64,000 bases of DNA, from the NCBI GenBank assembly GCA_008632985.1, contig QPGO01000058.1, positions 248,001 through 312,000 of the forward strand. Direction: 5' to 3'. Below are positions 11,690 through 50,516 of the stretch, piece after piece (the first letter of the stretch is position 1; every line of letters begins with the position of its first letter). This stretch comes from Psammoneis japonica. Its lineage: Eukaryota. A program made the translations under genes and the position numbers. The notes beneath the pieces are model-generated. The model was not told the origin of the DNA, did not search any database, and was given only the letters and a program-made list of their open reading frames with translations.

Positions 11690-12737
11690 TTAGGCTGTCA
11701 CAGAGTGCAATAGACTTCCCCATCCATCGTCATCTTTTGGCAATTCATCTAGATCGTCCATGTTAAAGGGCTTTCCCATCAGTGAAAAGATTTCTTGGAG
11801 CACAGTTGGATCATCCGGGAGAGCCAAGCAATCTTCTGAAGAATCGATGGCTTGACCTCTTCTACTACTACTTGTTCCTTTTTCATAATAGGATGTTGCG
11901 GCTGGACAGCTTCGTGGGTGGTGGGGAAGAAAGATCTCTCGCCATGATTGTATGGCATGGATCCAAGTTCGGAGTTTCTCCGTCTGCTCTGGAACGACCT
12001 TTCTTGTTGAAGCAACGTATTTTGTCGGTTTCCAATACTGGGCATGGAAGAGCGACGAGAAGCCTTTGCCATGACGTCGAGACTCTTGCGCCTGTGCATT
12101 TCGTACTCGGCATCTGTCATGGAGTAGAAATTCGGCTCGTTCTGAGGATTGCTTGCCCTTCGGACTCGAGTGCCCTTGACCTTTGTTCGGATAATGGAGT
12201 CACACAGCTCGGGCTTTCCACGTTTAAACAAGAAGTGATAGTACCCGCCCTTGTCTGGACCTTCTGTAATTCTTTGGAAACCGTACTGTAGGAAAAGATC
12301 AGAAGAAGATTGTAAGCATCTATAGAGGTCGAGGGAGGCGTCGCTGAAAGTAAATCTTCGCCAACACTTACCAAATTCAATTGGCGCTGAAAGCTGGACC
12401 ATTTTGTTTGTCTAAAGAGGTTTGGCATAATGTGAATAACAAACTCCTTTGGCTTGTGAACAACGAAGCATTTTCCATGGGGCTGCCAAGAAACGATGTC
12501 TGCGTTCCCGTGCTCTCCGGAAGTTTCGAGCATAAGATGAAGCAACCGAGGAAACGGTATTCTTCCTTTTCCTGTCTTTGTAAGGGAAGACCTCCGCTGA
12601 GCCCGCTCGGGTTCCGCAAAGTCCCAATCGGGTACCAGAGAAAGTGATTCTGGGGAAAGAAAGTCGTTCAAGTCGTCAAGAGGCTCGCAATCAATGTCGA
12701 AGATATCTCTGGAGACGCTCATGTCTTGGCAATCCAT
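11690..12737 (-). CDS. Heat shock transcription factor (HSF DNA-binding domain)
   Basis: FPRLLHLML...IVSWQPHGKCFVVHKPKEF...FRQTKWSSFQRQLNL|YGFQRI with GT-AG intron 12286-12371. The C-terminus probably continues through a frameshift near 11820 to a stop at 11690. Confidence 0.92.
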
Positions 12738-14089
12738 GCCTGTTCGAATGAGGAGCCCAATTTGTCAAACGTTTGTGACAATGCAACCATTTTTTCAAGT
12801 TGTGGCTGAAGTTATAAGGCTCACAAATGCTTTGACCGCAGGAGTTTAAGTACGACTATGAGGCTTGCCGTGTCTTGAAGAGACGACTTGAAAGATTTGT
12901 GAGTGAATGGTCTGAGAGTCGTGTCTTTTTGGTAGGTGAAGCTCAAGCTTTTTTCAAAGTTAGTCAATCTATTTGGGTCTGAAAGACGCGTTTGCGTGGT
13001 ACCGTTTGATTCAGTGAGCGTGGTTTCGGTCATTCACCAAAATTGGCGAAACAAAATGGTCCGTTGCATTTCTACGCTTTTCAGTACTAAAGTCGTCAAA
13101 TGTCCCTTCCATCTTCGATCAGTTTGGACAGATCATGTGCCAAAATAATTAGGAGAAACAGAATGTATCATTTATGGATGGCGATTCAAAGACATTCAAC
13201 GATAAGTGACCTACAGTGGCATCCTAGCGACCATCACGGTTGAAAATGCCATGGGCTGGATCTTAATGCCGAGAACTCATGATGGTAACATAAATACTAA
13301 AGAAATACAAACATTCAGCGTTTATTGTATGAAATGATCAGTCACGCGTGTAGTCACGTTCAGAATGTCTCCTTTGACATAAATTCCAACATTTTGAAAT
13401 TTTGCAGTCACTCTCCTCCTCTTTTATTGAGGTCACACGACTGAAAGGCACTGGCTTCGAAAAAAATGTGGACTCTTGATATCCCCTCAGCGGAAGATTA
13501 TTACTACTTCACGCGCTCATCTACGACTAATTGATTTGCGGTTTGCTCCTTCCTTCCCGGGATCAGACTCTCACAAGAAGATATGGTCCGTTTAACACAT
13601 CAACGCCAGACACATTGCTCTACTTATGGCGAATGCAAAGCCGAGAAAGGGGCGGTGACCTGTGTCATTCATTTTATTCTTTCTCACTCTACGAGCCAGT
13701 AAATATGGGATGATCGAAACAGCTCAAACGTAACATGGGAGGTCTAGAAACGCCTTACCTTGCACACTCCAGCACATTATTGGACGAATGCCGTATTAGC
13801 AAACGATTCTTCGAATTCATGACCGAACGAAGGGACGTCCATCAGGTCCAAGCCTCGTCAACCTGAAGTCCAAATTAGGATGAGCATACCTAAGCCATGA
13901 ATTGGAAATTCAATCATTCTCATAGGATGCGCCCGCATCTTGTTAATATGCGTCGCTCCCTTATTTGAAATAAGCTAGTAATGCCTTATTCTCTCTACAG
14001 TTTGCAGCTGGATCATCGTTGATGTGCCACTTAGAGTCCAGCATGTACAGTGTCCAGAACAAAGTACTTATAACATATCAAGTTTAAGC

Positions 14090-15422
14090 AAATCCAAACA
14101 ATTCACGCAAACGAACATATGGGTGGGATATCTCCTGGAGCTGGCGTGTTTGACGGAAAAATCAAGGTAGGAGCAATTCGTAAAGGTGCCATGAGGATAT
14201 GAATTACCCAGTGTGACAGCTCATAGCTCCATATTGATTGTAGCACGAGGCTACCGCATTGTCAACAAGAATAGTTCCAGAGGAAGTGAGAGGAGCATAG
14301 TAACCATCCATTGTGGTTGAGTTTACCGAGTGAACGAGACTGACTCGATGCTCGCCTGTGAAGCGACTCGATTTTGACACCAGCTTTGACCCCGCCTTCA
14401 GTTTCTTGGCAGGGACGGCATGCTGTTTACCAGTGTCTGTCATTATGAACACCATGTGCTCAGGCGAAAGCGTCAAATTACCCTGATCATGGGAAATCTT
14501 CAAAACACCGACGGTCTCGTTTGGATGCCAGTGGAGGAAAGTGGCAACAGTGGCCCATCCGTCAGCAGTCGCGACCTTGCTTCCAATCTCAAGGTCCTTT
14601 ATTAAAATGGTTCCCCGCTCACGATCGACTACTGTCGAATCCGGAGAAAAGCAAGCTGCGTGATCAACAACATTGATATCTTCCCAGGACTCTTCTCGTT
14701 TGGACGGGGGATGCATCGGGCGACTAGGTAACTCCTCGACCCAGTCAGTGAATTTGTTCCTCCATGAGGAACGCAGAAGCATCTTATTCCATGCGCCCCC
14801 CAGAAGTGCCCCCAAGGACCAAGAAGAGACGTTATGGTCGTCGTACCAGAAAATGGGGACGTTGCACAGCTGGTAGTTCTTGCATAAGATAAGGGGGTAG
14901 ACTCTTCTCGTAGAGATCTCTAGCAGGATCATGGGTGCATTGTGTCATCACGATTGCAAGCCGATCAGCTAACTCTTCCTTGTTTCCGTTTCCAAGAGTC
15001 GAGACCATCATCCTCAGAGTCTTGCGAGCTTGAGCATCTAGCCTTTTGTTGCACGCATTGTGAACGTACACAAATCCATGACCTCCGCCGATCGATCGTA
15101 CGTGACGAAAGAGATCATCCAGAAAGTCATCGTTGCGGTCGTCTGTATCTCCCAGCCCTCCAGTGTCTGATGCACGAACCAACACACCTCTCGATGTGTC
15201 CCCAAACAGCGTCCCCGCTCCTGTCGAAATGCGTGAAGTAGAAGAATCGAGAGTGTCTCCAACCTCAAAGAAACCCCTTTCGCCGATGATTTCGTTCAAG
15301 AGGGTGCTCTTGCCTGCGCCTGTTTCTCCGATTGCAATGATATGTCGTGTGGGTCCCGATTTAACCCGTTGCGGAATTAGCAGGAGCACCATGGCTGCGC
15401 GAAGAACCGGAAAAACATACAT
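14090..15422 (-). CDS. Signal peptide + AIG1/TRAFAC-like GTPase + Hedgehog-type Hint (Hog) domain fusion protein
   Basis: GETGAGKST (G1), DTGG (G3), IVMTQC (G4-like). Hint from CFSPDSTV (Cys at 14651-14653) through LTLSPEH to GYYAPLTSSGTILVDNAVASCY. SRR-like SHWVIHILMAPLR lies in an adjacent frame. The GTPase and Hint ORFs join through a frameshift at the G5 run ~14893. Confidence 0.8.
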
Positions 15423-15549
15423 CTTGTTCGACAAGTTAAAGAAATCGAATGTCACTATCTGGTAATCAACCCGTGCGATTCTTCGGCGGCTTTCCCCAGA
15501 TTGTGTCTGGGTCTGCGGTCTCGATCATTCATGCGGATCCTGTATGAGT

Positions 15550-15820
15550 AAAAACCTGAATTACGAAAATTTCAAACTGTTGTGTTGCATCTGTACACTC
15601 CGATGAGAACGCTTTTGATTGGTGGTTCCTCGTTCCCGTACGGTAGAGGGCGTTTGCTGTTTAGAAGCACATCATGCAGGGCGCGCTCCCTCCCACTCTC
15701 TCAAGCAGTCCTGCTTGCGTAAAAACCTGAAATGCGAAATTTCAAACCGGTATGTTGCCTCTTCACACTCCGATGAGAGCACTTTTGATTGGCGGTTCCT
15801 CGTTCCCGTGCGGCAGGCAT
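15550..15820. repeat. Intergenic ~100-bp imperfect direct repeat, 2 copies, period ~171 bp
   Basis: aaaaacctgaa...acactccgatgag...ttttgattgg(t/c)ggttcctcgttcccgt at ~15550-15650 and ~15721-15820. Confidence 0.85.
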
Positions 15821-16307
15821 TTTTGGTTTATTCGAATTCGAGACCGGCGCACCTCACTGCGATCTTTTGGTCATGCGTGTTGTGCACCAATGGGCGCAAT
15901 ATCACCACCAAGAGGCGGCACGCGGAACTGGCATCACATGCATTGTTGCTTGGGTCGCTAAGCGCAGGCGTCCAATTGATGGGAATCTCTTCCAAGAATC
16001 GTCGTCATTGTCAGATCCGTTGCTCTCTCCTTTTCGGTAGCTGCTTACTACCGTTTCAAAATAAAGAGTACAGCTGAAGGAAGTGGTCTACCAAACATGA
16101 CATCATCTTGAAATAAATTAAAATGTAGTAGTGAAGAAAGTGGCGAGGTTCAAGGTCAAATTCGCGACCCAAATCCGCGACCCATAACGAACGAAAAGCG
16201 CGCAAAACCATAAGACGCGACGCGCGACAGACCACCCAACGCTCCCATCCCATTTATTTATCACGCACCTTGAACCTCCAACCTCCCATCGCAACCAAAG
16301 AGCAACA

Positions 16308-17582
16308 ATGGCAACCGCGCCGATACACCGTCGTCCTCAAAGGCAAAGGATCCTAGCGCTCCTTCCATGATCATCCCAGTTGTCCTATTTGTCTTGGCGA
16401 CATAGATGAAGCGGATCAGACATATCCTGTTTTATGTCCGCTCAAGTGTAACTACAACTTTTGTGCCTCGTGTGTCGAGCATTTGGTGTTGAGCTCTCAG
16501 AGTGACTATGAAATGGCTTCGGATGGAAACAAACACGTCAAAGTCCAGTTGCTGTGTCCTCAGTGTCGAGGTGACTTGAGCAACACAATTCACGATACCC
16601 TGTTGCTCCGCAAGGCCTTTGTCGCGTCCAAGTACGTGGAGACACCAGACTCGGAGCTCAACGCTTCCGAGCTACGAATCAAGCATGAATTTGCAAAACA
16701 GTACGGGGACGCTGTTAGCGATGCCGAAGCGAGGGTGAGAAAGTTCCACGAAGGAACGGCGGAGCCAATTAAAATGACCAAGAGTGAAGAACAAAGGGCT
16801 GCGTATGTCGATACCACCTTGTTTGGAGGCTTGGAGTACGCAATGACGGAGAGGAGCAAGCCTATGTCACAGAGCTAATGACTGGTGGAAACGCAGAACA
16901 TTGGCACAAGCAGCTCAAATTTTGCATGGTATTGCGCAGATTTCATTACAGGGAATAACACCTTCGATGCGTGGTACAAAGACGACTAGTAGTAGTCCAC
17001 TAGCTCCTGCTACTGCCAAGGCTACCAAGATGGACTACACTCCACACGTGCAGGTGGAAGAGGGACCAGTATTCTGAAGAGCGAAAACAAGTCGAAGAAC
17101 TGGAAAAACAAAAGAAGCTCCATCCTCTTCCGGCTCGTATGCCACGCTTTGCTCTCTTGACAGCTTTTGATCCCACGGCGAAACGCAAAACGATCAAGTT
17201 TGAAAATGATGAATGGGACGGGTCCCTTGCCGACGCGTTTATTCGAATGCAAACAAAATCTCACAAACCAAAACCAGGGGCGGATCGAATTTTGTCCTTG
17301 GCGGATGATCCTCAGCTTGCTCCACCTATGGAACGTGTCAAAATTGCCTCGGTTCGAGGAGAAGCCGGCAAATTGGGGCTGCAAGCCGGAGACGTTGTGA
17401 CTCATGTAAACGGAGAACAGCTTGTCGGCGATGCTGAGGTCTTGAATGACATGATTCTCCGCATGTTTAGTGAAAATCCGACCAGTCCAATGACTTTTTC
17501 CATTGTGGTGAACGCTGAAGCCTCCACCGCAGAAGTATTGAAACTTCGTGCAAAAGCATTAAAGTTCAGCGGCAGAGGATGA
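16308..17582 (+). CDS. RING-finger protein with C-terminal PDZ-like domain, frameshifted in this sequence
   Basis: CPIC...CPLKCNYNFCASC...CPQCR RING pattern, and GKLGLQAGDVVTHVNGE PDZ-like motif. Confidence 0.75.
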
Positions 17583-20997: not shown

Positions 20998-22666
20998 CTA
21001 GGGTTCTTCAATATCATCAGTGCCGCTTGAACCGTCAGGATTCATCAGCTTTTGTTTCTGCAGTGCCAAACCTGCTTTGCGCTCCTGAAGATCGTTCATG
21101 TGGTTATCGATCTCGCCCTCAAGTTCTTCAATTTGATCGAGAGAGAGGTCATTGTATTCTACGTCCTTTGGCAAGAGTGGAACAGCCGGGTACAAATGGC
21201 CAGCCTCGACGCTTTCTTCTTCGTCTTCTTTGCCGCCCTTGCGCGCAGCACGTTCCTCGGCAGTGCCAATGTAGACTTCGTCACGCTTAAAGCCTCGGAC
21301 CTTCTTGTCAATCTTGGCAAGGAACCATGCTCCAGAGCAAATACCGGTGGCCTCCAAAAATAGACAGATGCGGAGGAACAGGTAGGTGATGGGATTTGAC
21401 AAAAAGGCAATGGGAAAGGCAGACGCGACAAGCTGCCACGAGATGGATCCGAGAATGGTAGTAATGGTGGCACCAAGGAAACCAGTTTCAAAGAGTTCCT
21501 GGAGTCCATCGCTAACACCCCACAGGTTGCCCTTGCCCTCGTCCATCGAGACAGTGGTGACACGAGAGATAATGAAGAAGCAAGACACGACACTGAGCTG
21601 ACGGCCAATCATGAAATTGGGAAGGTTGTGTCCCCTGCCCTTGTAGAGGAGATCGCAAGTCATCTTGGCACACTTGGCTCTTCCACGCTCGTCCTTGGTA
21701 AGCTTGGCGACGGCAAAGAAGGCAATCTGCATACCTTCGAGCATACCAACGACAGACATGAGGAGGAAGAACAGAATCACGGCAACTGCCTCGGGAACAC
21801 CGTCCCACATGGTGGTTTGTCCTTGGAAAAGAGCAGATAGGGTGACTGCCAAGGCAAAGCCGAGGACGACAAACGAGACAAGGACACGGAACCAGAAGAA
21901 AAGAGATTGACCGGTGCTGCGCGGAGGCTCCTTGGATTCGATGGGCTTTCCAGCAAGGTATCCAACACAAATCTGGATGAAGTAGGAGAAGTGCATGAGA
22001 CCGGTGAATTCAATCGCCCTGGCAGTGTAGAGCGTAAAGAGGTTTGCATAATCGTTGAAGTAGTCGAGCATACAGAGCGATGCGTTGACCTGCGACTGCA
22101 ACTGTCCGACCTGTGCCGTAAAGAGGATCATGGCGAATCCGGTGACAAGGAAGATGTCGACAATCCACTTAGGCAATCCCCAGAGTTCAGCACCTTCGAT
22201 AGGGGCTCCACACTTGTTGATGAGGAAAACGATAAAGATGACCATGAACTGACGGCCCATAAGGTAGCGATCGAGGTTATCTCCCTCTTGGGTCATAGCG
22301 TTGCCCTTGTAAGCGATCGGGTGGGTGTCCTTGTAGAGCTCACGGTCAATCGGGTGAAGACCAACCAACGAAGCCTGTCCGCCCTCGACGAACGAGAGCC
22401 AAATCAACATCACCCAAAGGATAATAAAGGCAAGAGCAGGATGGTATTGCTCGGACCACGCCGTCTGCCTTGTGAAGATCAAGCCCATAACGATCACCAG
22501 CGAGAACACAAGGAGAATGGTGGAGTAGAACATCTTGAAGATGCTGAGAGCTTTGTGCAAGTCCGATTTCTCTGTAAGGAGGAACGAGCGAAAGAGCGAC
22601 CGAATGAGCAAACAACGCAGAGGAAAACAACAAGCTACGTACGAGAGAGACAGGCTTACCACTCAT
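20998..22666 (-). CDS. SIT: Silicon transporter
   Basis: About 10 TM segments, EGGQ, GRQ, EGMQ and GRQ motifs, CMLD motif and C-terminal coiled coil. Exon 1 ATGAGTG (22666-22660), intron 22572-22659, giving MSEKSDL. Confidence 0.97.
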
Positions 22667-30170: not shown

Positions 30171-30467
30171 AACACAGGGAGGACAAGGAAGTATAGAATC
30201 CCTTCGACACAAGTAGAGCAGGTGACAAGCGCAAGCGAGTGAAAACAAACACTGCCAGGGCTGCAGTGCTGGAAAAAGCAACGCCGTGTGTAAAATTGGT
30301 TGAAAGGCCGCGCGCTCAAAGCAACGGCAACTGCGGCGGAAGCACCATGATTTTCGCATCGCTGCGGTCGCTGGTAATAGCAGAGTTGTCTGTCTTGCCA
30401 TAATAGCTTAGCTAGCCTCATCGCTCTCGTAATTCAGGCAGGTGGCTGAGACGCGCCTTTTTTGAAG

Positions 30468-31933
30468 ATGATGCTGTATGCGACTAGTGGAATGCTTGTG
30501 TTTTGTGTTGTCCTTCAGAAAATACCGATTTCAAGATCCATCCTACCACCGCAGAGTCCGCAGTGGCCGCCGACGTATAACATGACTGAGAGCCTCATCA
30601 CAATGCAGTGCAATAGTTCTGGTTGGAGTTCACCTCTTCGAGCTTCCGAATTTGGAATTGTTTCTTATGATTGGTCAAACGCAAAGAGCGTGTGGGCAGC
30701 TGCCAAGCCGATGAATGCTGAAGAACTTTTGGAGTTGCAGGCAGAACAAGCAAAGCATTATGGTGTAAAGCACGTGTTTGTGTATCGCAATATTGTCAAG
30801 GCCTTACCGTGGTTCAAGTCTGTGCGCGAGAAACTAAACGACCCAGAATATGGTAAGGTTAGGTCGTTGACGAGCTTGTTCAATTCCTTTACTCGGTTCT
30901 TACAGTCCCGTAGTAGAGGCTCAACTTCGTTTGCTCTGTTTTCTTCGGCACAAAAAAAGAAGGTTTCTTTGTCAAATTTGATTCGAATCGAAATGATTAT
31001 CACGTTCCAGCTTGCGCTCGAGAAAATCCCAATCTGTGCAGCAGGTTTTATCATGATCAAGAGCAAACGCCTGAGGTACCAACCAAAGACAATCCTCATC
31101 CGGATGGCTCGTGCGTCGACTATTGCGATTGTGGAGCGCATCCATGTGGTGAATACTTGTTCGATCACCGCAATGGCACAATGTTGCGAGACTTTTTGGT
31201 GCAGAAAGTTGTCCTGGGTGCTGTATCTGGACCTGCGGATGGCTTGTTTCTAGACGACTATTGGTGCAGTGACATCCTCTGTAATGCATCTGGACAGGAA
31301 CTCGCTGGTTGTCCGTGTGACGATCCGGTTCAGGGTCCTACGGAATTCGACCAGAACTGGCAGGCAGACACGGGGTTGACCGATGAAGACATTCGAGACA
31401 TGACGAAAGAGTGGAACAAGACTATGACTTTGATACAGCAAGCCCTCCTTGACAATCACGCCTACACGTGGTCTCTTATTCATGGCCAAGAGAACGCAAA
31501 CGCTATGCCTTTATTTTTGAACCGAACCAAGTGTGGAACGATGCTGAGACAAGCTTGTGACGCTGACTCGATGTGGCGGAAATCGCCAGTGCTCTTTGGC
31601 CTTTCAGTAGTTAACGGAACGATTCTTTCTCAGCTGGAACAGGATTTGGCTTTCTTTCTGCTTGCGCGGGGAGACTGGGCATGGTTGGGATGGGGAGTCT
31701 GGGGTATGACTTGGCCTTTCAATGCAGAGCCACAACATGGGGCGCTGCCTCCTTTGCCTCATGGAGTTCCAGTGCCACCCGAATTGCGTCTGGATTACGG
31801 TATTCCAATCGAACCATGCCATGAGGTTTCGCCTAATACCTTTCGCCGCCAGTGGAGTCGAGCTTCGGTTGAGCTGGATTGCGATTCATTCGTTGCCACT
31901 ATTTCGTTTCGGGACTCCTCTCAAACTACCTGA
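30468..31933 (+). CDS. Secreted putative glycoside hydrolase-like protein (GHL15/GH168-like)
   Basis: Signal peptide, SYDWSNAK, VFVYRN..KAL, DGLFLDD, LAFFLLARG and LDYGIP..C.E...FRRQWSRASVELDC. Intron ~30853-30962. Family assignment is from memory of the motif pattern. Confidence 0.6.
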
Positions 31934-32695: not shown

Positions 32696-35600
32696 CTACC
32701 AAAAATAGTGATTTGAAATTGTGCGAATGATTGTTTTGGCTGTGTCCTTGTCAGCATCAGCCTTGTTTAGCATAATAGCAACTGAGATGCCAGAGTCTTT
32801 GTGATGAAATCCACTGTGTCAACATGAAAAGATAAAGTGAGAGAAGACAACAGGAAAAAGTGCGAAAAGCTTCAAATCGAGATCTTACATGGATCCACCC
32901 ACTCCAGCATGGCCAAACGCGGAAGGCCCCTTCCTATCGCCATCAAACCGAATCAACTGGTATCCCATAGCAAGCGATACGCCCTCATCTTCGCTTTCAG
33001 TGGATGTCATGGCGGTCTGTCCCTGGAGCATGTTTGCGGTACTCTCATTTGTTACCACAGCTGTTGCAGCATCAAGAGAATCTTTGCTTACTAGCTGGCC
33101 TGTTCCCAACTCACGATAGAATCTTGCCAGACCCAAAGCTGAAAAACGGCCTCCAGCTGCAGGGACGTTTCCATTTTGAGCCTCTTGGCAGTTCCAGATT
33201 CGTTGATCAAGGAGGAATTCTTTCCCACGAAAAGACTTCCTGACCTGGTCCAGAGCAGGGCTGGAGAAGTCAGCACCATCAATTCCGGCTGGAGCTTCTT
33301 CTCCCATTGCTTCTGCCTCTCTTCTCTTCTGGAAAACCTGTAGAAATTTATCCACCGACGTATCCGTTTGAGCCATGGGGAATCCACCATCTCCACCGCA
33401 GGGCTGAAACCCAACATCTGAAACACTCTTTGGGAGTTTTGGCTCGAGTATGGCACGGTATACCTCCTCGAACGTAGCAAATCGTTTCCCATGTTTCAAT
33501 GAGTACGCGCCACATAAAGTACCGGCGACAAGCCAACCAAAAGACATAAAGTGGTATTCACACTTTTCGCCAGGGCTTTGAGTTGGCAGAAGTGTTTCCT
33601 CCGGTGCTGACGGGTTGTACTCAAACGCAGTCACAGATGTCTCGCAGCACGCCATGCTTCGAATGCTCATTCGCGTCGGTAAGGCAGCCCAGTAGCCAGC
33701 AGAGTGCGTCAGAATATGTCGAAGCGTAATGGATCGTTTCCAAAGCCAACGTTGTTCCAGATCTTTCATTGACGTTGACATGACACGCCTCAACTCCTCT
33801 GGTGGGGTTTCCGTTGGACAGAATGCTTTCCAAACGCGTTCTGAAATCGGTTCGTCATAAGACAGGTAACCCTCCTCTACCATTATGTGGGCCAAAGTCG
33901 CGGTAACCGCTTTTGTACAGGAATATCCGAGAATGACTGCATCAGGACGCATAGGGCTTTCTTTTTTAAGGCCACCCATATGCCCAGTCCATGTGTGCGA
34001 CAACATGTTCCCGTCCGAGTCCAAAACACAAACTTGGGCACCTGCAACCATTCCTTTCTCGTTCAATTCCCCGACCACAGCAGTAACTGTTTCATTCAGA
34101 GTTTTGTCTGAGACGTCGTACGTCGGAACGGGTGTCATGGCATTTTTCTCTTGTTCAAAACTCTTTACTGATATCAGTAAGCCACGCTCTGCATAAGGCT
34201 TCAAAACGTCAAGAAAGGTCATTTCGACTCGGAGCTGAGAACCAAGTCCATGAAGCAACTCGTTGACGCGAATAAAGAAGAAAAACTCTCCAGGATAGGC
34301 CTTGGACTCTACGGGAACTCGTTCTCCTCTTTTCTTGGAGTTCATTCGCCTCTGTAACCATCAAAATAGGAAGCAATACGAAGCAACGTCAGATAAAGTC
34401 ACAGTGAATACGAAGGCGGTGACGCCACTCTTATAGTTCGCACCATATCAGTCTTCATTTTGGCCTTGATTCTCTTCCTAGTTTTCTCTCGAGGAGCTAA
34501 ATCTCGAAGTACAAACCGCATTCCTTCTAGATCTTCGGTCACATTCTCACGTTTCAATTTCAATCCAATAGTTTCAAACGCATCAAGCAAAAGTCCATAG
34601 TCAAACGTGGAAGCAGCGTAAACCATTTGACAAAAGGCGAGCCTCTTTTTGTCTGGCAATCTCTTGGCTAGGCCCCAGTCTAAAAGAACGAGTGTGAACC
34701 CTTCCGTTTTCGATACCGATGTACCGGGTCTTACAAAGATATTTCCTGTCAAAGATAGGAGATAAAGGACTGAGCAGCAGACAACGAAACAGGAAGAAAA
34801 CGAGTACATTCCAATGAGAAACTCACCCGGGTGCGGATCCCCATTAAACACGTCCGTGACGTACATCATGTGAGCAAAGCTTTGAGCAACAGCATCCATC
34901 ACTGCTTCTCTTGGGATCTTCCATTCCTCTAACTGCTTCAAGTTATCCACTCGTTGACCTTCACAAAAACTCATGACGAGCACGCTACTGTTGGACAGAT
35001 GCTTCAAAGGACGCGGGATCTCCACTTGAAACGGAACACTTGTTGGACAAGAAGGAGTAGTGTTGGTTTGGACGACACTATCGTCATTCGGTAGGAGGCG
35101 ATCAATAGAAGCCTGAGCTAGCTTCAAATTGTTTGCTTCCGTCAAGAAATCCAGTTCCTTCTTTGCTTCGACTGCCCACTCTCTCATGAGGATTTCAAAG
35201 AAAGCATACTCCGGTTCTAGCCATGATATGATGCGAGAAATGACCTTGAGCGACCAGAAATCATCGGTTAGAAGCGTTCGAGCAAATGGATGCTGCACCT
35301 TCAACACCACCTTTTCACCCGTTGAAAGAAGTCGAGCCGTGTGAACTTGACCAATCGAGGCACTGGCAATCGGCTTCTCATCGATATCAGTTAGGTCTTT
35401 CAGTAGGCCAGGCACACTAGCTAGCATTCGTTGTACATGATGCCATTCAGTTGCAGGTGCTTCGTCCTGTAGCTTTTTCAGTTCACGAACGTACGCCACC
35501 GGCACAAAGTCACCGCGACTGCTTAGATACTGCGCAGATTTGGTCCACAATCCCCTCAACCTCAAGATACTCAAGTAAAGAAATCTAGCTGAAATCTCAT

Positions 35601-36156
35601 AGTTTGCATCCCAAATGGCCTCTTCGTTCATGTCGCTGCCAAAATCTGGAACCATCCGGGATGATTCGTCTGGTGTAGTCATGAACATGCGTTCCCTCCA
35701 CCGGCACATTTTGATTCTTGACATGACAATAAAGGCGACAGCAAACACTTCAAAGCGGCGGTGAGCCAAGCCATGACTTGTCTTGTGATGAATATAAGGG
35801 ATCACCATGAGAATATATGCCGAGATACTAAGAGCGCGAGGATGAAGGACCCATGCTAACCATTTTATTTGCAAAAGCTCTGGCGACCAACGTTCGACTA
35901 CTATCGGCAACAGTGGCAACACCCAGCCCAAGCATTTCCAATACAGATACAGAGTCAGCGCTGACAAGGCAACGGCCAATCCTCTGGCCAAGAAATCGAG
36001 TTGTTGCACTGACACCAAGATATTCTGAGCTTCAAGGCGAGCACATTTCGCTGACAATGTCTCGATTTCCTTTTCAAGACGCGCCACTGCTGCATTCTCT
36101 GGTTCCTCGGGAGACGACTCCTCCGGAACGAATTGCTCGTGTGGAGCAGGAGGCAT
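32696..36156 (-). CDS. ABC1/UbiB atypical kinase fused to a beta-lactamase (serine hydrolase) domain
   Basis: IASASIGQVH, VVLKVQ, KELDF..EA, NGDPHPGN and LLDWG, then YSCTK (SxxK), LRHILTHSAG, EYH and FGHAGVGGS. Three GT-AG introns; the last exon ends NHYFW*. Confidence 0.9.
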
Positions 36157-37045
36157 TTCTTTGTAACTTTTCTAGGATACTTTAATGGGAGTGTTGATTG
36201 GTCTCATGTCAGAGTTCCGGCGTCGACTAGCAGTTCACAATCGCGGCGCCATGGTGTCGCAACGACGTGTTGGAACTCGCCGGAACAAGAGTTTGTTCCC
36301 GCGCGTTCGTCCGTCGCTTCAAAGGACTGACTGAGTCAGAAGTTAGTCGTGAAGCGCGATCACACTTTCATGGACTTTATTTTGCTCGCGCTTTTTGCTG
36401 TTTCCCGGCATTATAAAGCCACACCAGAGCTGTTGTTGGTTCTTCCAGGCTCCTTTACATTCGTGAAAGATCACTCGTATTTATTTCAATCTTGGAGTTG
36501 AGTCAAGCACCATTTTTTCCTGCAGACACCTGGTGCTCTGTGGCGAGTGGCATCTATCTCCGAGAGGCTTACATGGCACAGATTTGACAAAAGATAATCA
36601 AAGCACTGTTGTATATGATCGAAAGCTATGGGCTTCAAGCTTGGTCGCGGGCATTTAGAGCTGAAGCAATGCGCCCAGTTCCAGGCAGGGGAAATCAATC
36701 GTGGTCCTGTTGCTTGGTGGTCCTTGTGACGTGTTCCCGAATAGGTACTCCGAATATTTTATACATACAAAGTCCAATACTCTAAACTTTTGATACGTAT
36801 TCAGATTTTAATAAGTTGAAATGCCATAAGTTTATTATCGTCACTGCAGCAATATAAGTTAGATTGTCCGTTCCATCAGGTCGTGCATGTGTATTGTTTC
36901 GCACCATCGTGCGACACGCGACGACTCCTCCTCAGCCTCCTCAAGACTTCCACAAAAAAGCAAGACTGCAATTCATCGCCGAGTTTTGTGTTTGTTCGTT
37001 GTTGTTCACTTCCACCACAAGTCGTGACCTGCATTGATCATCCTT

Positions 37046-40642: not shown

Positions 40643-41722
40643 TCATCCTTCATAGCGCTGAAAGTTCTCGTAACCACGCTGTTTCTTTACTGAATTATCA
40701 CGTTTCGCCCACTCTCCTTTTGTTTTCCGTTGCGACCGCTCTGGCTTCGGGATCCGAGCCTTGCCCCGTTTCTGTTTCTTCTCTCCACTGGCCTTTGCAA
40801 TTTTCGCAACGCTCTCTTGACTAAATGTCAGTATCATCTTGTCAGAAGCGCCGGTATAGTCTAGCAAATCGTCAATCATAACGTCACTTTCCGCTTCGGA
40901 CAACACATCACTCTGGACTTCCCCGCCGATAATGTACAACAGCTTGCTGTCGCTGTTCTTTTTGAGCAAGTCCGAAGTCCAAAAACAAAACTTGGGTAAA
41001 AATGCTACACTTCGCCCAACACACACATCATAGGCTTTCTTGTGTAGGTGTCCCTCCGTTTCATTGTCAATCAATTCTTCTGCTCGTCCATGATGAGTTT
41101 CCACATTTTTCAAATCCAAGTCTTCCGCCATGGCTTTTACAGCCTTGATCTTTTTCCCAACGCTATCCACCAACATGAAATGAGTATTTGGATATGCAAT
41201 TGCCAATGGCAAACCAGGAAAGCCACCTCCTGTGCCGACATCAATAATTCGTTTCCCCTCTGATTGTAGTAATTGCGGCAAGGCTGCCATGGCTACGGAC
41301 GGCAGTACGTGCCGACCAAACACAACTTCCCTGGTACAGTCCTTTCGACTGATTAGGTTAATCTTTTCGTTCCACTCCACCACAAGAGAAGATAAACTAC
41401 AGAGTTGCTCGTGTTGTTGTGACGTGAGACCTAATCGAGATGTAACAATGTCTCGTGCTGTCTCGCTTTCGGGGTCCATGGAGAAATTGACAGACGTCGT
41501 CGATGACGATTCTTGAAATGATGAATCATTGTGATACTCTGCTCCAAGTTGTGTGCTTGTACTTGTTCTTAGCCATGCCTGAAAGGAAACATTATTACTT
41601 CCCCGAGGGCAGCGCCGAAGAACAAAAGCAGCAGCGGTAGAAGAAGTTGCCAGAAGCGAGATCATCGACACGATGATTTTTCGAAACGTACAAGAAGTAC
41701 TTAGCCACGATCGACAGGTCAT
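40643..41722 (-). CDS. rsmG: Ribosomal RNA small subunit methyltransferase G (RsmG/GidB), probably plastid-targeted
   Basis: WNEKINLIS, RHVLPS, IDVGTGGGFPGLPLAI, LVDSVGKKI and GRAEE. TAAA-FV presequence. Confidence 0.93.
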   Translation of the reverse strand: MTCRSWLSTSCTFRKIIVSMISLLATSSTAAAFVLRRCPRGSNNVSFQAWLRTSTSTQLGAEYHNDSSFQESSSTTSVNFSMDPESETARDIVTSRLGLTSQQHEQLCSLSSLVVEWNEKINLISRKDCTREVVFGRHVLPSVAMAALPQLLQSEGKRIIDVGTGGGFPGLPLAIAYPNTHFMLVDSVGKKIKAVKAMAEDLDLKNVETHHGRAEELIDNETEGHLHKKAYDVCVGRSVAFLPKFCFWTSDLLKKNSDSKLLYIIGGEVQSDVLSEAESDVMIDDLLDYTGASDKMILTFSQESVAKIAKASGEKKQKRGKARIPKPERSQRKTKGEWAKRDNSVKKQRGYENFQRYEG

Positions 41723-48830: not shown

Positions 48831-49291
48831 ACAAGGCACAGGTGGTTCCAAGAAGGACGACACGGTGCAGGCATTAAGACGGTTTCGAAAGATGCGGAGA
48901 CGAGCCGAAAGCTCCCGAGGAAAACGACAAGGAAGAAACCGACGAGGAAATCGTGACGAGCCATACAAAACGAGAAACCCATGAAAACTTGTAACTTCTC
49001 TCCCTAAACAAGTCGAGAGGAGTGTAATTAAGTGGTCAAAGCACTTTGTTATGTGAAATGTCCAAGTTTCCATCGTCCGGGAGAGGGTTCAAGTTGGCGA
49101 ACCGACTTTGGCGATTTGTGTAGAAAACATGCTAAGCTCTACGTACATAGAATCTGGCCCACTTTTGTACCCGTACCACCTTAAAAAAAACTTTTCTCGC
49201 TGATGGCTCCCGCTGTCCATGACGATGCACGATGCCACGGACAGCGGTAGTTATGTGAGCTGCAATTACAGCTAAGCCTGTGTTGCGTAGC

Positions 49292-50516
49292 ATGAAGATT
49301 ATTTTGATTCTCTGGCTCATGTCAAGAAGTCTGGTATCGTTTGGATTTGAGTCGTCGCTTGCCCTTGTACAAGTATGCCCCAGAAGTGCGTGCAAACACT
49401 ACCTTTGTTATCGAGAGCCGACACGTTGCAAGAATCACCAATACGGAGCTGTATCTTTTTTTCAAAGCTATCACAATATTAGAGAAAAGAGAACAGCTCA
49501 CCTGCAAATAATGAATGCTGCGGGATCCACCGACAAGGAGGGTGAAGTTGACTTGGGAAAGAATATGAGCGTGGATTCCCCTCCGCCGCCTCAAAAATAT
49601 CACACCATTACCGTTTGCATGGTCCCTCCAGAGGATGCCGTATATGCATGGGATACCGTTAGTCGTGCTCGCATCGAATTAAGAGATCCTGGCTTCTTTC
49701 GCTGGCCCCCGCATGCGAATCTGTTGTATCCTTTTATATCTTTGCGATCCAAGCAAGACAGTAATAGGGAGACGAGAGAAGACGAAGCTCAGATGGAAAT
49801 GGAATTCATTCATAAGCTTAGGAATGCTACAAGACAGTGTGAACCTTTTCAGGTATCTCTTGATCGATTTGGAACTTTTGGTGGGAAACAACGGGGTGTA
49901 TGTTGGGTGTATCCTTCAAGTTCTCGTGACGAGAATCAAGAACAAGAGCCACTCATTGAACTACAGGCTCTTTTGGAGCAAGAGTTTCCGTTTTGCAAAG
50001 ATCAGCGCAAGCACGGCGGCCAGTTTAACCCGCACATGACCTTGTCTCACTTTCCTGATTTGGATCAAGCCGAAGCTGCAGCACAACAGATTGCATCTTG
50101 GTGGCCGTCAACATGCTCCTTACGTGCAATGAAATCTACGTGTTGGAACGGAATGGGGACGAAGGGCAGTTTCAGCGACTTGTCACGTTGCGGTTGGGAG
50201 AGGCGGATGAGGATGATGCAGTGCGTATTCACAATCCTCCCCTTGCGTTTTCGGCCATGCCAAATACAGAGGAAGACTGGGTGCACGAGGAACGCATGAA
50301 GCTCAAAGAGAGAAGGAACAACTCATGGAAGCGAAGAGGGCGACGAAGAGGAGGGAGAAGAAGAAAACCAAGAGAACAACACGAGGTTTGTGCGGGCCGA
50401 GCAGGAGCAAAGACACACCTGAGGAGATTGCAGCGAAACGTGCAGCGAGAAAAGCCAAGCGAGAAAGGCTCGAGAAGGAAAGAATTATGGAAAACGATGA
50501 AGGTAGAGTAACGTAA
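49292..50516 (+). CDS. 2H phosphoesterase / 2'-5' RNA ligase family protein
   Basis: RWPPHANLLYPF and FNPHMTLSHF 2H motifs, with a basic C-terminal tail. Frameshifts at ~50120 and ~50390. Confidence 0.85.

Follow-up and report, generated by a model that had tools for sequence, protein, structure and literature searches.

A gene for an AIG1/GIMAP-like P-loop GTPase joined to a Hedgehog-type Hog domain in the diatom Psammoneis japonica

We describe a GTPase-Hog gene of the diatom Psammoneis japonica, which lies on the minus strand of a 64,000-nucleotide stretch of contig QPGO01000058.1 (assembly GCA_008632985.1, positions 248,001 to 312,000), called the window here, and which runs in window coordinates from an ATG at 15422 to a TGA at 14103. 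Its product begins with a hydrophobic N-terminus, continues with an AIG1/GIMAP-like P-loop GTPase domain and ends with a Hedgehog-type autoprocessing (Hog) domain, made up of a Hint module and a tail that resembles the sterol recognition region (SRR) of Hedgehog. The gene is whole, the order of its domains is conserved across a family of one-chain relatives (cited below by P numbers), the catalytic motifs are in place and the N-termini are hydrophobic. We propose that the chain enters the secretory pathway, that the Hog domain cleaves the precursor and that the GTPase domain is released as a lipid-anchored product. This reading, which leans on the analogy with animal Hedgehog, has in our estimate a probability of about 0.5. 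A more specific reading is considerably more doubtful, namely that these proteins form a family of exoplasmic P-loop GTPases that are sterol-anchored by their Hog domains at the cell surface or in the lumen of endomembranes in diatoms and other marine protists.

Gene extent and assembly errors

In the assembly as given, the coding sequence of the GTPase-Hog precursor (14103..15422, minus strand; ATG at 15420-15422, TGA at 14103-14105), delimited by frames, tblastn and read contigs, is spread over three frame pieces. The first runs from the ATG at 15422 to a stop at 14832 and holds the hydrophobic N-terminus and the motifs GETGAGKST and DTGG. The second (14944-14204) holds a conserved stretch followed by AACF, LSPEH, YAPLTSSGTILVD and ASCY, and the third (14261-14103) is back in the first frame with SHWVIHILMAPLR and the TGA. 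The gene was read through with an X at each frame break, and the database tools were given the uncorrected frame pieces; the three pieces contain no in-frame stop. Once both assembly indels are allowed for, the open reading frame has 439 codons and is intron-free. A preliminary description of the locus, made from the sequence alone, had reported a hydrophobic N-terminus, a P-loop GTPase and Hint/SRR motifs, and every motif that it quoted is present in the minus-strand translation. Of the extent that it gave (14090..15422), the upper bound stands and the lower bound is 13 bases too low, as the TGA ends at 14103. The 1-bp corrections that it called for at ~14893 and ~14220 are placed by the read contigs at 14891 and behind 14228.

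We take the frame breaks to be assembly errors because read contigs mend both and relatives align across both joins. The region 13900-15700 was checked against contigs from three public runs of the same organism (one sample, one study), and that these runs are DNA is a guess. The first error is a surplus letter at 14891 that cuts the GTPase domain into two frames. Contigs of the runs X1 (depth 45.7 of 45.7) and X2 (11 of 11) both omit one letter there, adjoining a run of five G at 14893-14897, and in the alignment relatives show SLPP and then (I/L)(L/M)C across this position. The second error is a missing letter at 14228..14229, where X1 inserts a C behind 14228 (depth 46.9 of 46.9) and X2 has no coverage; with this C the spacing from ASCY to SHWAI is that of P0012 and P0017. 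X1 also reads G at 14206 in place of A; the resulting replacement of Val by Ala makes SHWVIH into SHWAIH, as relatives have it. The direction of the corrections, one base fewer at the first join and one more at the second, matches what the frame needs. With tblastn, P0013 matches the locus in three frames by collinear, abutting pieces (query residues 74-232, 229-452 and 456-490), P0017 likewise matches in three frames (query residues 29-195, 179-400 and 402-438), and the spacing over both joins in the alignment is the same as in P0012 and P0017. No second copy of the gene was found in the 64-kb window by tblastn with five relatives. Between 14599 and 14741, X1 resolves two alleles (depths 29 and 20.7) that differ at 10 of 143 bases, which indicates that the organism is heterozygous. 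Seven of the 10 differences alter a residue, mostly in the linker just ahead of the cleavage cysteine (Cys1), and the second allele stays open.

These data make it very probable that the locus is an intact fused gene encoding a single precursor and not two open reading frames or a pseudogene. For a decaying locus in which both frameshifts are genuine one could cite the two breaks in the assembly as given and the 77 bases of the tail that are missing from one X2 contig. Against it stand the presence of both corrections in X1 at full contig depth and of the first also in X2, the lack of in-frame stops, the agreement with the spacing of relatives over both joins and the open second allele, and we regard such decay as highly improbable. 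We give almost no credence to the idea that the frame changes are small introns, or that the GTPase and Hint parts belong to separate neighbouring genes. Minus-strand GT..AG pairs of the right phase do exist at 14846..14783 (64 nt) and 14207..14141 (67 nt), but their removal would hit the conserved stretch ILCKNYQLCNVPIFWYDD and the SHWAIHILMAPLR tail. Both intron models were rejected because they would delete residues conserved in relatives and because the read contigs offer simple 1-base corrections. As for two genes, the tblastn pieces are gapless in the query and the relatives are single chains.

The contigs differ at a few other places. Besides 14599-14741, variants occur at 15241 and 15263, and at 15241 an X2 contig has a Ser-to-Cys change that recovers the family consensus L-D-S-C-T. 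The 77 bases omitted from one X2 contig are 14165-14241, where X1 is continuous at full depth; with the missing letter restored the skip amounts to 78 bases and takes 26 codons out of the SRR-like tail without shifting the frame. The only canonical splice sites that would explain it, GT..AG, lie on the plus strand and so run antisense to the gene; should X2 be RNA, the skip could come from an antisense spliced transcript, or it could be a variant in the DNA.

The three parts of the precursor

The fusion of a GTPase with a Hedgehog-type Hint, put forward in the preliminary description, is confirmed by Pfam, where AIG1, MMR_HSR1 and Hint (PF01079) all score above their cut-offs; the motifs are far more than chance would give. 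The Hint module (residues 257-394; 14240..14653, minus strand) was delimited by Pfam, alignment, profile and a model of P0017. Its Pfam match, at 14204-14944 on the minus strand, has 95.7 bits (E 3.8e-27, cut-off 29.7), relatives score 60-107 bits with matches that reach profile positions 205-207 of 213, and E is 9.7e-54 for the relative that matches the Hint piece best. The Hog alignment included two animal Hedgehogs, P0005 and P0010; motif names follow Bürglin 2008, and the letters were assigned to each motif by our reading of the alignment. Cys257 (codon 14651-14653) is Cys1, its A-A-C-F aligned with G-C-F of P0005 and P0010, and the residue that precedes it is G, A, S, Y, F or P across the family. 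S-P-E-H of the LSPEH motif (14456-14467) is aligned with T-P-A-H of P0010, so that the His is kept and the Thr is a Ser, and A-S-C-Y (14240-14251) fits motif J, the Cys-containing motif (S-C-Y) that closes the Hint module.

The column of the general-base Asp (F-L-D; D46 in P0010, D303 in Drosophila Hedgehog) is occupied by His297 (F-L-H; 14531-14533), and His is found there in every aligned family member except P0020, which has a different loop at this place. The D303H swap in the C-terminal domain of Drosophila Hedgehog (HhC) is reported in a review to keep structure and cholesterolysis and to widen sterol tolerance (PMC9163320). By analogy, the general-base function may be kept in this family despite the change from Asp to His. 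The best structural match of the Hint in the P0017 model is 6tyy, which is this same swap mutant (D46H in Hint numbering; target TM-score 0.85), followed by 1at0 (0.84). The family profile matches the Hedgehog chain 6td6_B at E 1.7e-21, and the match runs through the SRR to chain residue 438.

Ahead of the Hint module, a short linker defined by alignment (residues 233-256; 14654..14725, minus strand) ends in Ala-Ala before the cleavage Cys. It has about 24 residues in the window protein and likewise in P0013, P0014 and P0017, and is replaced by a longer coiled coil in most relatives. Behind the module follows a tail of about 45 residues (14106..14239, minus strand) that resembles an SRR or adduct recognition region (ARR), as placed by alignment, the Pfam range of relatives and the 6td6_B profile. 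As to the SRR motifs K and L, the first part of the tail, SHW(V/A)IHILMAPLR, aligns with A-H ... A-P-x-R of Hedgehog (A-H ... A-P-I-R in P0005), and the second SRR motif reads G-x-H-P-Y-A in relatives and G-V-H-W-Y-A in P0010.

The hydrophobic N-terminus (residues 1-17; 15372..15422, minus strand) is a candidate signal peptide or anchor by Kyte-Doolittle hydropathy, and it ends about nine residues ahead of the first GTPase strand. Secretory signals were scored by a hydropathy window alone, which is a crude measure; by it, the best 11-residue mean ahead of the P-loop is 2.65 in the window protein. In the family, with the window protein counted, 16 of 20 sequences reach a mean of at least 2.0, versus 16 of 74 other AIG1-type hits, this comparison set being the hits that start with Met and have their P-loop at residues 16-150. 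P0019, P0015 and P0022 have classical-looking signal peptides, in which small residues precede a polar start. In P0013, P0014 and P0018 a membrane segment follows a long extension at the N-terminus, an arrangement that usually places the C-terminal part in the lumen. Segments that look like signal peptides or anchors recur across the family and thus strengthen the initial view of this protein as secreted, and on balance the sequences favour entry into the secretory pathway.

Between these ends lies the AIG1/GIMAP-like P-loop GTPase with its C-terminal helices (residues 26-232; 14726..15347, minus strand), delimited by Pfam, profile and the model of P0017. G1 (GETGAGKST, 15303-15329) and G3 (DTGG, 15156-15167) are both intact. 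On the first frame piece Pfam AIG1 (PF04548) scores a borderline 27.6 bits against a cut-off of 27, and MMR_HSR1 scores 24.1 bits against 21.9. The AIG1 match spans only about profile positions 2 to 110-130 of 212; eight relatives with both domains reach 29.5-41.2 bits for AIG1. The domain is closed by the family motif W-x3-F-x2-W-x3-LP, and the best relative of the GTPase piece is found at E 1.7e-50. Compared with the PDB, the family profile finds GIMAP4 (E 1.7e-10), GIMAP7 (4.1e-09), Toc34 (2e-07), GIMAP5 and GIMAP1 and then septins, and the GTPase of the AlphaFold model of P0017 (pLDDT 84.6, pTM 0.61) matches GIMAP2 (2xto, 2xtp and 2xtm; target TM-score 0.66-0.71) as well as GIMAP7 and GIMAP1. 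The grouping with AIG1, GIMAP, Toc34 and septin-like GTPases that had been suggested from the motifs is therefore borne out.

Where the G4 strand is expected, the family has T-Q-C-T (or T-H-C, T-R-C or T-K-C), which from its position we infer to be G4. Nearly all members of the alignment keep four Cys positions in the GTPase domain, and these would fit disulfides in an oxidising compartment. One relative, P0136, has a signal peptide and a Hint module that is intact, but its P-loop is degenerate and lacks G-K-S/T, so that some members may do without nucleotide binding.

Relatives and precedents

An exhaustive search with the GTPase piece returned 420 proteins at E <=0.001, 8 of them at E <=1e-30. 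From the best 150 of the 420, 97 proteins (22 + 75) were scanned with Pfam, the other 53 being shorter than 250 or longer than 800 residues, and a Hint module was found in 12 of the 97. AIG1 is followed by Hint in eight scanned relatives (P0012-15 and P0017-20). P0002 and P0004 are of the same kind, with sequences that begin inside the GTPase domain. P0136, with its degenerate P-loop, is another of the 12. In P0036, a Polykrikos kofoidii transcript, the Hint end stands ahead of the GTPase, and it may be two tandem genes read as one. Word-index searches add P0003 and P0161-P0165 (precomputed Pfam). At least 14 proteins in public assemblies are one-chain and of the AIG1-then-Hint kind, some of them more than 80% identical to one another. 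The preliminary description had set its single chain against separate open reading frames or a pseudogene, with no homologue that has both domains; this test of its own goes in favour of one chain, since homologues have both domains in one chain. None of the word-index matches with the fused architecture came from NCBI or UniRef, and in the 10 clusters looked up P0036 was the sole member with a taxon name and P0020 was labelled only 'hypothetical protein'. The other 85 of the 97 scanned matches are almost all ordinary AIG1-family proteins, which makes AIG1/GIMAP the nearest outgroup, and among the scanned matches of 250-800 aa (97 of the best 150) no Hint was found outside the protist family. 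Local paralogue clusters are hinted at for P0017/P0165 and for P0161/P0167/P0169/P0170, family members and fragments whose contigs are given with the same lengths (1,409,960 and 1,141,114 bases), and P0036 would fit tandem genes as well.

The architecture itself is not new, given fungal, snail and Mucoromycota precedents, and to that extent the earlier view of it as uncharacterised has to be given up. Bürglin 2008, citing Requena 2002, describes GmGIN1 of Glomus mosseae as a GTPase like AIG1 and IAN/IMAP with a bona fide Hog domain after it, the same two domains in the same order as in the protist family. The account of GmGIN1 in Bürglin 2008 gives it no signal peptide, whereas a predicted signal peptide or anchor is present in 16 of 20 sequences of the protist family. 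A Biomphalaria AIG gene model with AIG1 and then a C-terminal Hint is listed as an unusual architecture in PMC7053062, where a signal peptide is counted in 0 of 91 snail AIG genes. This gene, compared here by description only, shares the AIG1-then-Hint order with the window protein, but it is an animal gene described without a signal peptide. In the ESM Atlas, a Mucoromycota cluster of 59 members, annotated with 'AIG1-type G domain' and with Hint at 100% each, is the top feature match for P0017 (score 0.90, 178 of 256 features shared). The searches returned no fungal sequence, and GmGIN1 was compared by description only; the fungal and protist fusions, linked here by feature score alone, may be old and diverged or may be independent. 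More than 290 genes with Hedgehog Hint domains are given for Pleurosigma and 112 for Seminavis in the Pleurosigma genome paper. A diatom or protist GTPase-Hog family was not found described in the open-access literature searched, and what is new here is a protist subfamily with a predicted secretory N-terminus and His at the general-base position of Hedgehog.

In overall layout the precursor resembles that of animal Hedgehog (HhN + HhC), with its signal peptide, cargo domain, Hint and SRR. Animal Hedgehog and the window protein share the Cys-Phe start, x-x-H and S-C-Y, and the first part of the tail is SRR-like. They differ in the cargo, which here is a P-loop GTPase and not the Hedge ligand domain, in His for the general-base Asp, in Ala for the Gly ahead of Cys1 and in a shorter tail. 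The nearest solved GTPases are GIMAP4, GIMAP7 and Toc34 by profile and GIMAP2, GIMAP7 and GIMAP1 by fold. Compared with GIMAP and Toc34 proteins, the window family has a partial AIG1 match, no classical G4 Asp and a putative N-terminal signal peptide. Many GIMAP and Toc34 proteins have C-terminal membrane anchors, and the Hog domain of the window family stands where many GIMAPs have theirs.

Proposed processing, alternatives and surroundings

In the route that we propose, the N-terminal signal peptide or anchor would bring the chain into the secretory pathway, with the AIG1/GIMAP-like P-loop domain (residues about 26-232) as cargo and the Hedgehog-type Hog domain (residues 257-439) as the processing unit. 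By analogy with Hedgehog, Cys257 would attack the carbonyl of Ala256 in an N-to-S acyl shift and give a thioester, which would then be resolved by a nucleophile activated by His297. The SRR-like tail suggests that this nucleophile would be a sterol or a similar lipid alcohol. The product would be a GTPase fragment of ~26 kDa, ester-linked to lipid at its C-terminus and so held on the membrane at its lumenal or outer leaflet, with the lipid standing in for the C-terminal anchors of GIMAP and Toc34 proteins. The Hog fragment would be lost. To our knowledge, Hedgehog-type autoprocessing is known in detail only for animal Hedgehog ligands, and the cargo and adducts of other Hog domains are largely unknown. 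That the chain is translocated and cleaved, what it then has attached, and that nucleotide is bound or hydrolysed are all predictions here, and they are not equally probable. Self-cleavage at Ala256|Cys257 is probable by comparison with Hedgehog, and the attachment of a sterol or similar lipid comes close to an even chance, on the lower side of it.

Several observations weigh against this route. The N-terminus of the window protein is weak as a signal peptide, with an Arg within the hydrophobic run and no clear small-x-small site, and 4 of the 20 family N-termini (P0003, P0012, P0020 and P0021) fall below 2.0 in the hydropathy measure, P0003 being a near-copy of P0017 with a different start. 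GTP is not known to have an established role at the lumenal or outer face of membranes. The G4 region is without the Asp of the classical N/T-K-x-D, and no conserved Asp stands at the classical spacing; given this and the degenerate P-loop of P0136, GTP specificity, and even a need for nucleotide, is not implied. The chain that was folded is P0017, 44-46% identical to the window's pieces, and not the window's own. Ala, not the Gly of Hedgehog, precedes Cys1. At the end of the tail, the P-x-x-G-x-x-H-P-Y-A-x-F of relatives has diverged to PAPGDIPPICSFA in the window protein, and the family tail has ~46 residues compared with ~75 in the animal Hedgehog P0005, so that sterol transfer by this diverged and shorter tail may be weak or absent.

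The last point leads to an alternative in which cleavage occurs and lipidation does not. The Hog domain would then be a self-cleaving protease, water or a small thiol would resolve the thioester, and a soluble secreted GTPase-like domain would be freed. The divergence of the window tail from the family motif and the shortness of the family tail relative to the SRR of P0005 would suit this alternative, as would the origin of the term ARR, which was coined since it is not known what Hog proteins other than Hedgehog attach (Bürglin 2008). It has to contend with a first part of the tail (H-W-A-I ... A-P-L-R) that is conserved and aligns with Hedgehog, and with a potential general base, the His present in all aligned members but P0020. 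A conserved tail that is idle in plain hydrolysis would also require some other explanation, and we consider release without lipid to be rather unlikely. A less likely possibility again is that the protein works in the manner of GIN1, held by an N-terminal anchor with both domains on the cytosolic side; cleavage there, whether or not lipid is attached, would free or re-anchor the GTPase. GTP is plentiful in the cytosol, and the N-terminal segment of the window protein is atypical of a cleaved signal peptide. GmGIN1, with the same two domains, is described without a signal peptide (Bürglin 2008), as are the snail AIG genes counted in PMC7053062. What this possibility would leave unaccounted for are the textbook signal peptides of P0019, P0015 and P0022, the long extension and hydrophobic segment of P0013, P0014 and P0018, an arrangement in which the C-terminal part is usually lumenal, and the four conserved Cys positions in the GTPase domain. 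Secretory entry followed by Hog self-cleavage and lipid anchoring of the GTPase domain therefore stays our preferred reading, at the strength given above.

The surroundings of the gene add several observations of a different kind. Just upstream of it lie two copies of a ~110-base repeat (15538-15650 and 15709-15816), 170 bases apart and 77-86% alike. X1 has a depth of 131 there, compared with about 46, and other contigs match this part only, so that it looks like a dispersed repeat. No Rfam match was obtained in 13000-17000 up to E 0.1. A full-length silicon transporter (PF03842, 692 bits) is encoded at 20998-22662 on the minus strand, as expected of DNA from a diatom or some other silicifying stramenopile. 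Further neighbour genes were recognised by Pfam at 16357-16878 (plus strand), 32885-36171 (minus), 40643-41722 (minus) and 49259-50299 (plus); the neighbours include a RING finger, a beta-lactamase-fold protein, an ABC1 atypical kinase, a GidB-like methyltransferase and a 2'-5' RNA ligase-like protein, and no connection of any of them with the GTPase-Hog gene is apparent. Long same-strand open reading frames that overlap in different frames occur as pairs at 11779-12764 (minus) and 30450-31933 (plus). With two indel errors found in the GTPase-Hog gene, these pairs may be further assembly frameshifts, or they may reflect introns. The locus shows that real genes are broken in this assembly by indels of a single base.

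In public collections, the GTPase-Hog proteins of protists form an entire family that has gone unnamed. The AIG1/GIMAP group is tied to immunity in plants and animals, and the family offers a compact and tractable Hog cargo, a GTPase from this immunity-linked group. It also has by nature the putative His general base that widened the choice of sterol in Drosophila Hedgehog when it was introduced by mutagenesis. If the secretory reading is true, the family would represent an unusual use of the P-loop GTPase fold beyond the cytosol. If the exoplasmic reading is true, these organisms would display a GTPase at the cell surface or in the lumen in the way that Hedgehog displays its ligand, and it could serve in recognition or signalling, with or without dependence on nucleotide, mating and defence being examples.

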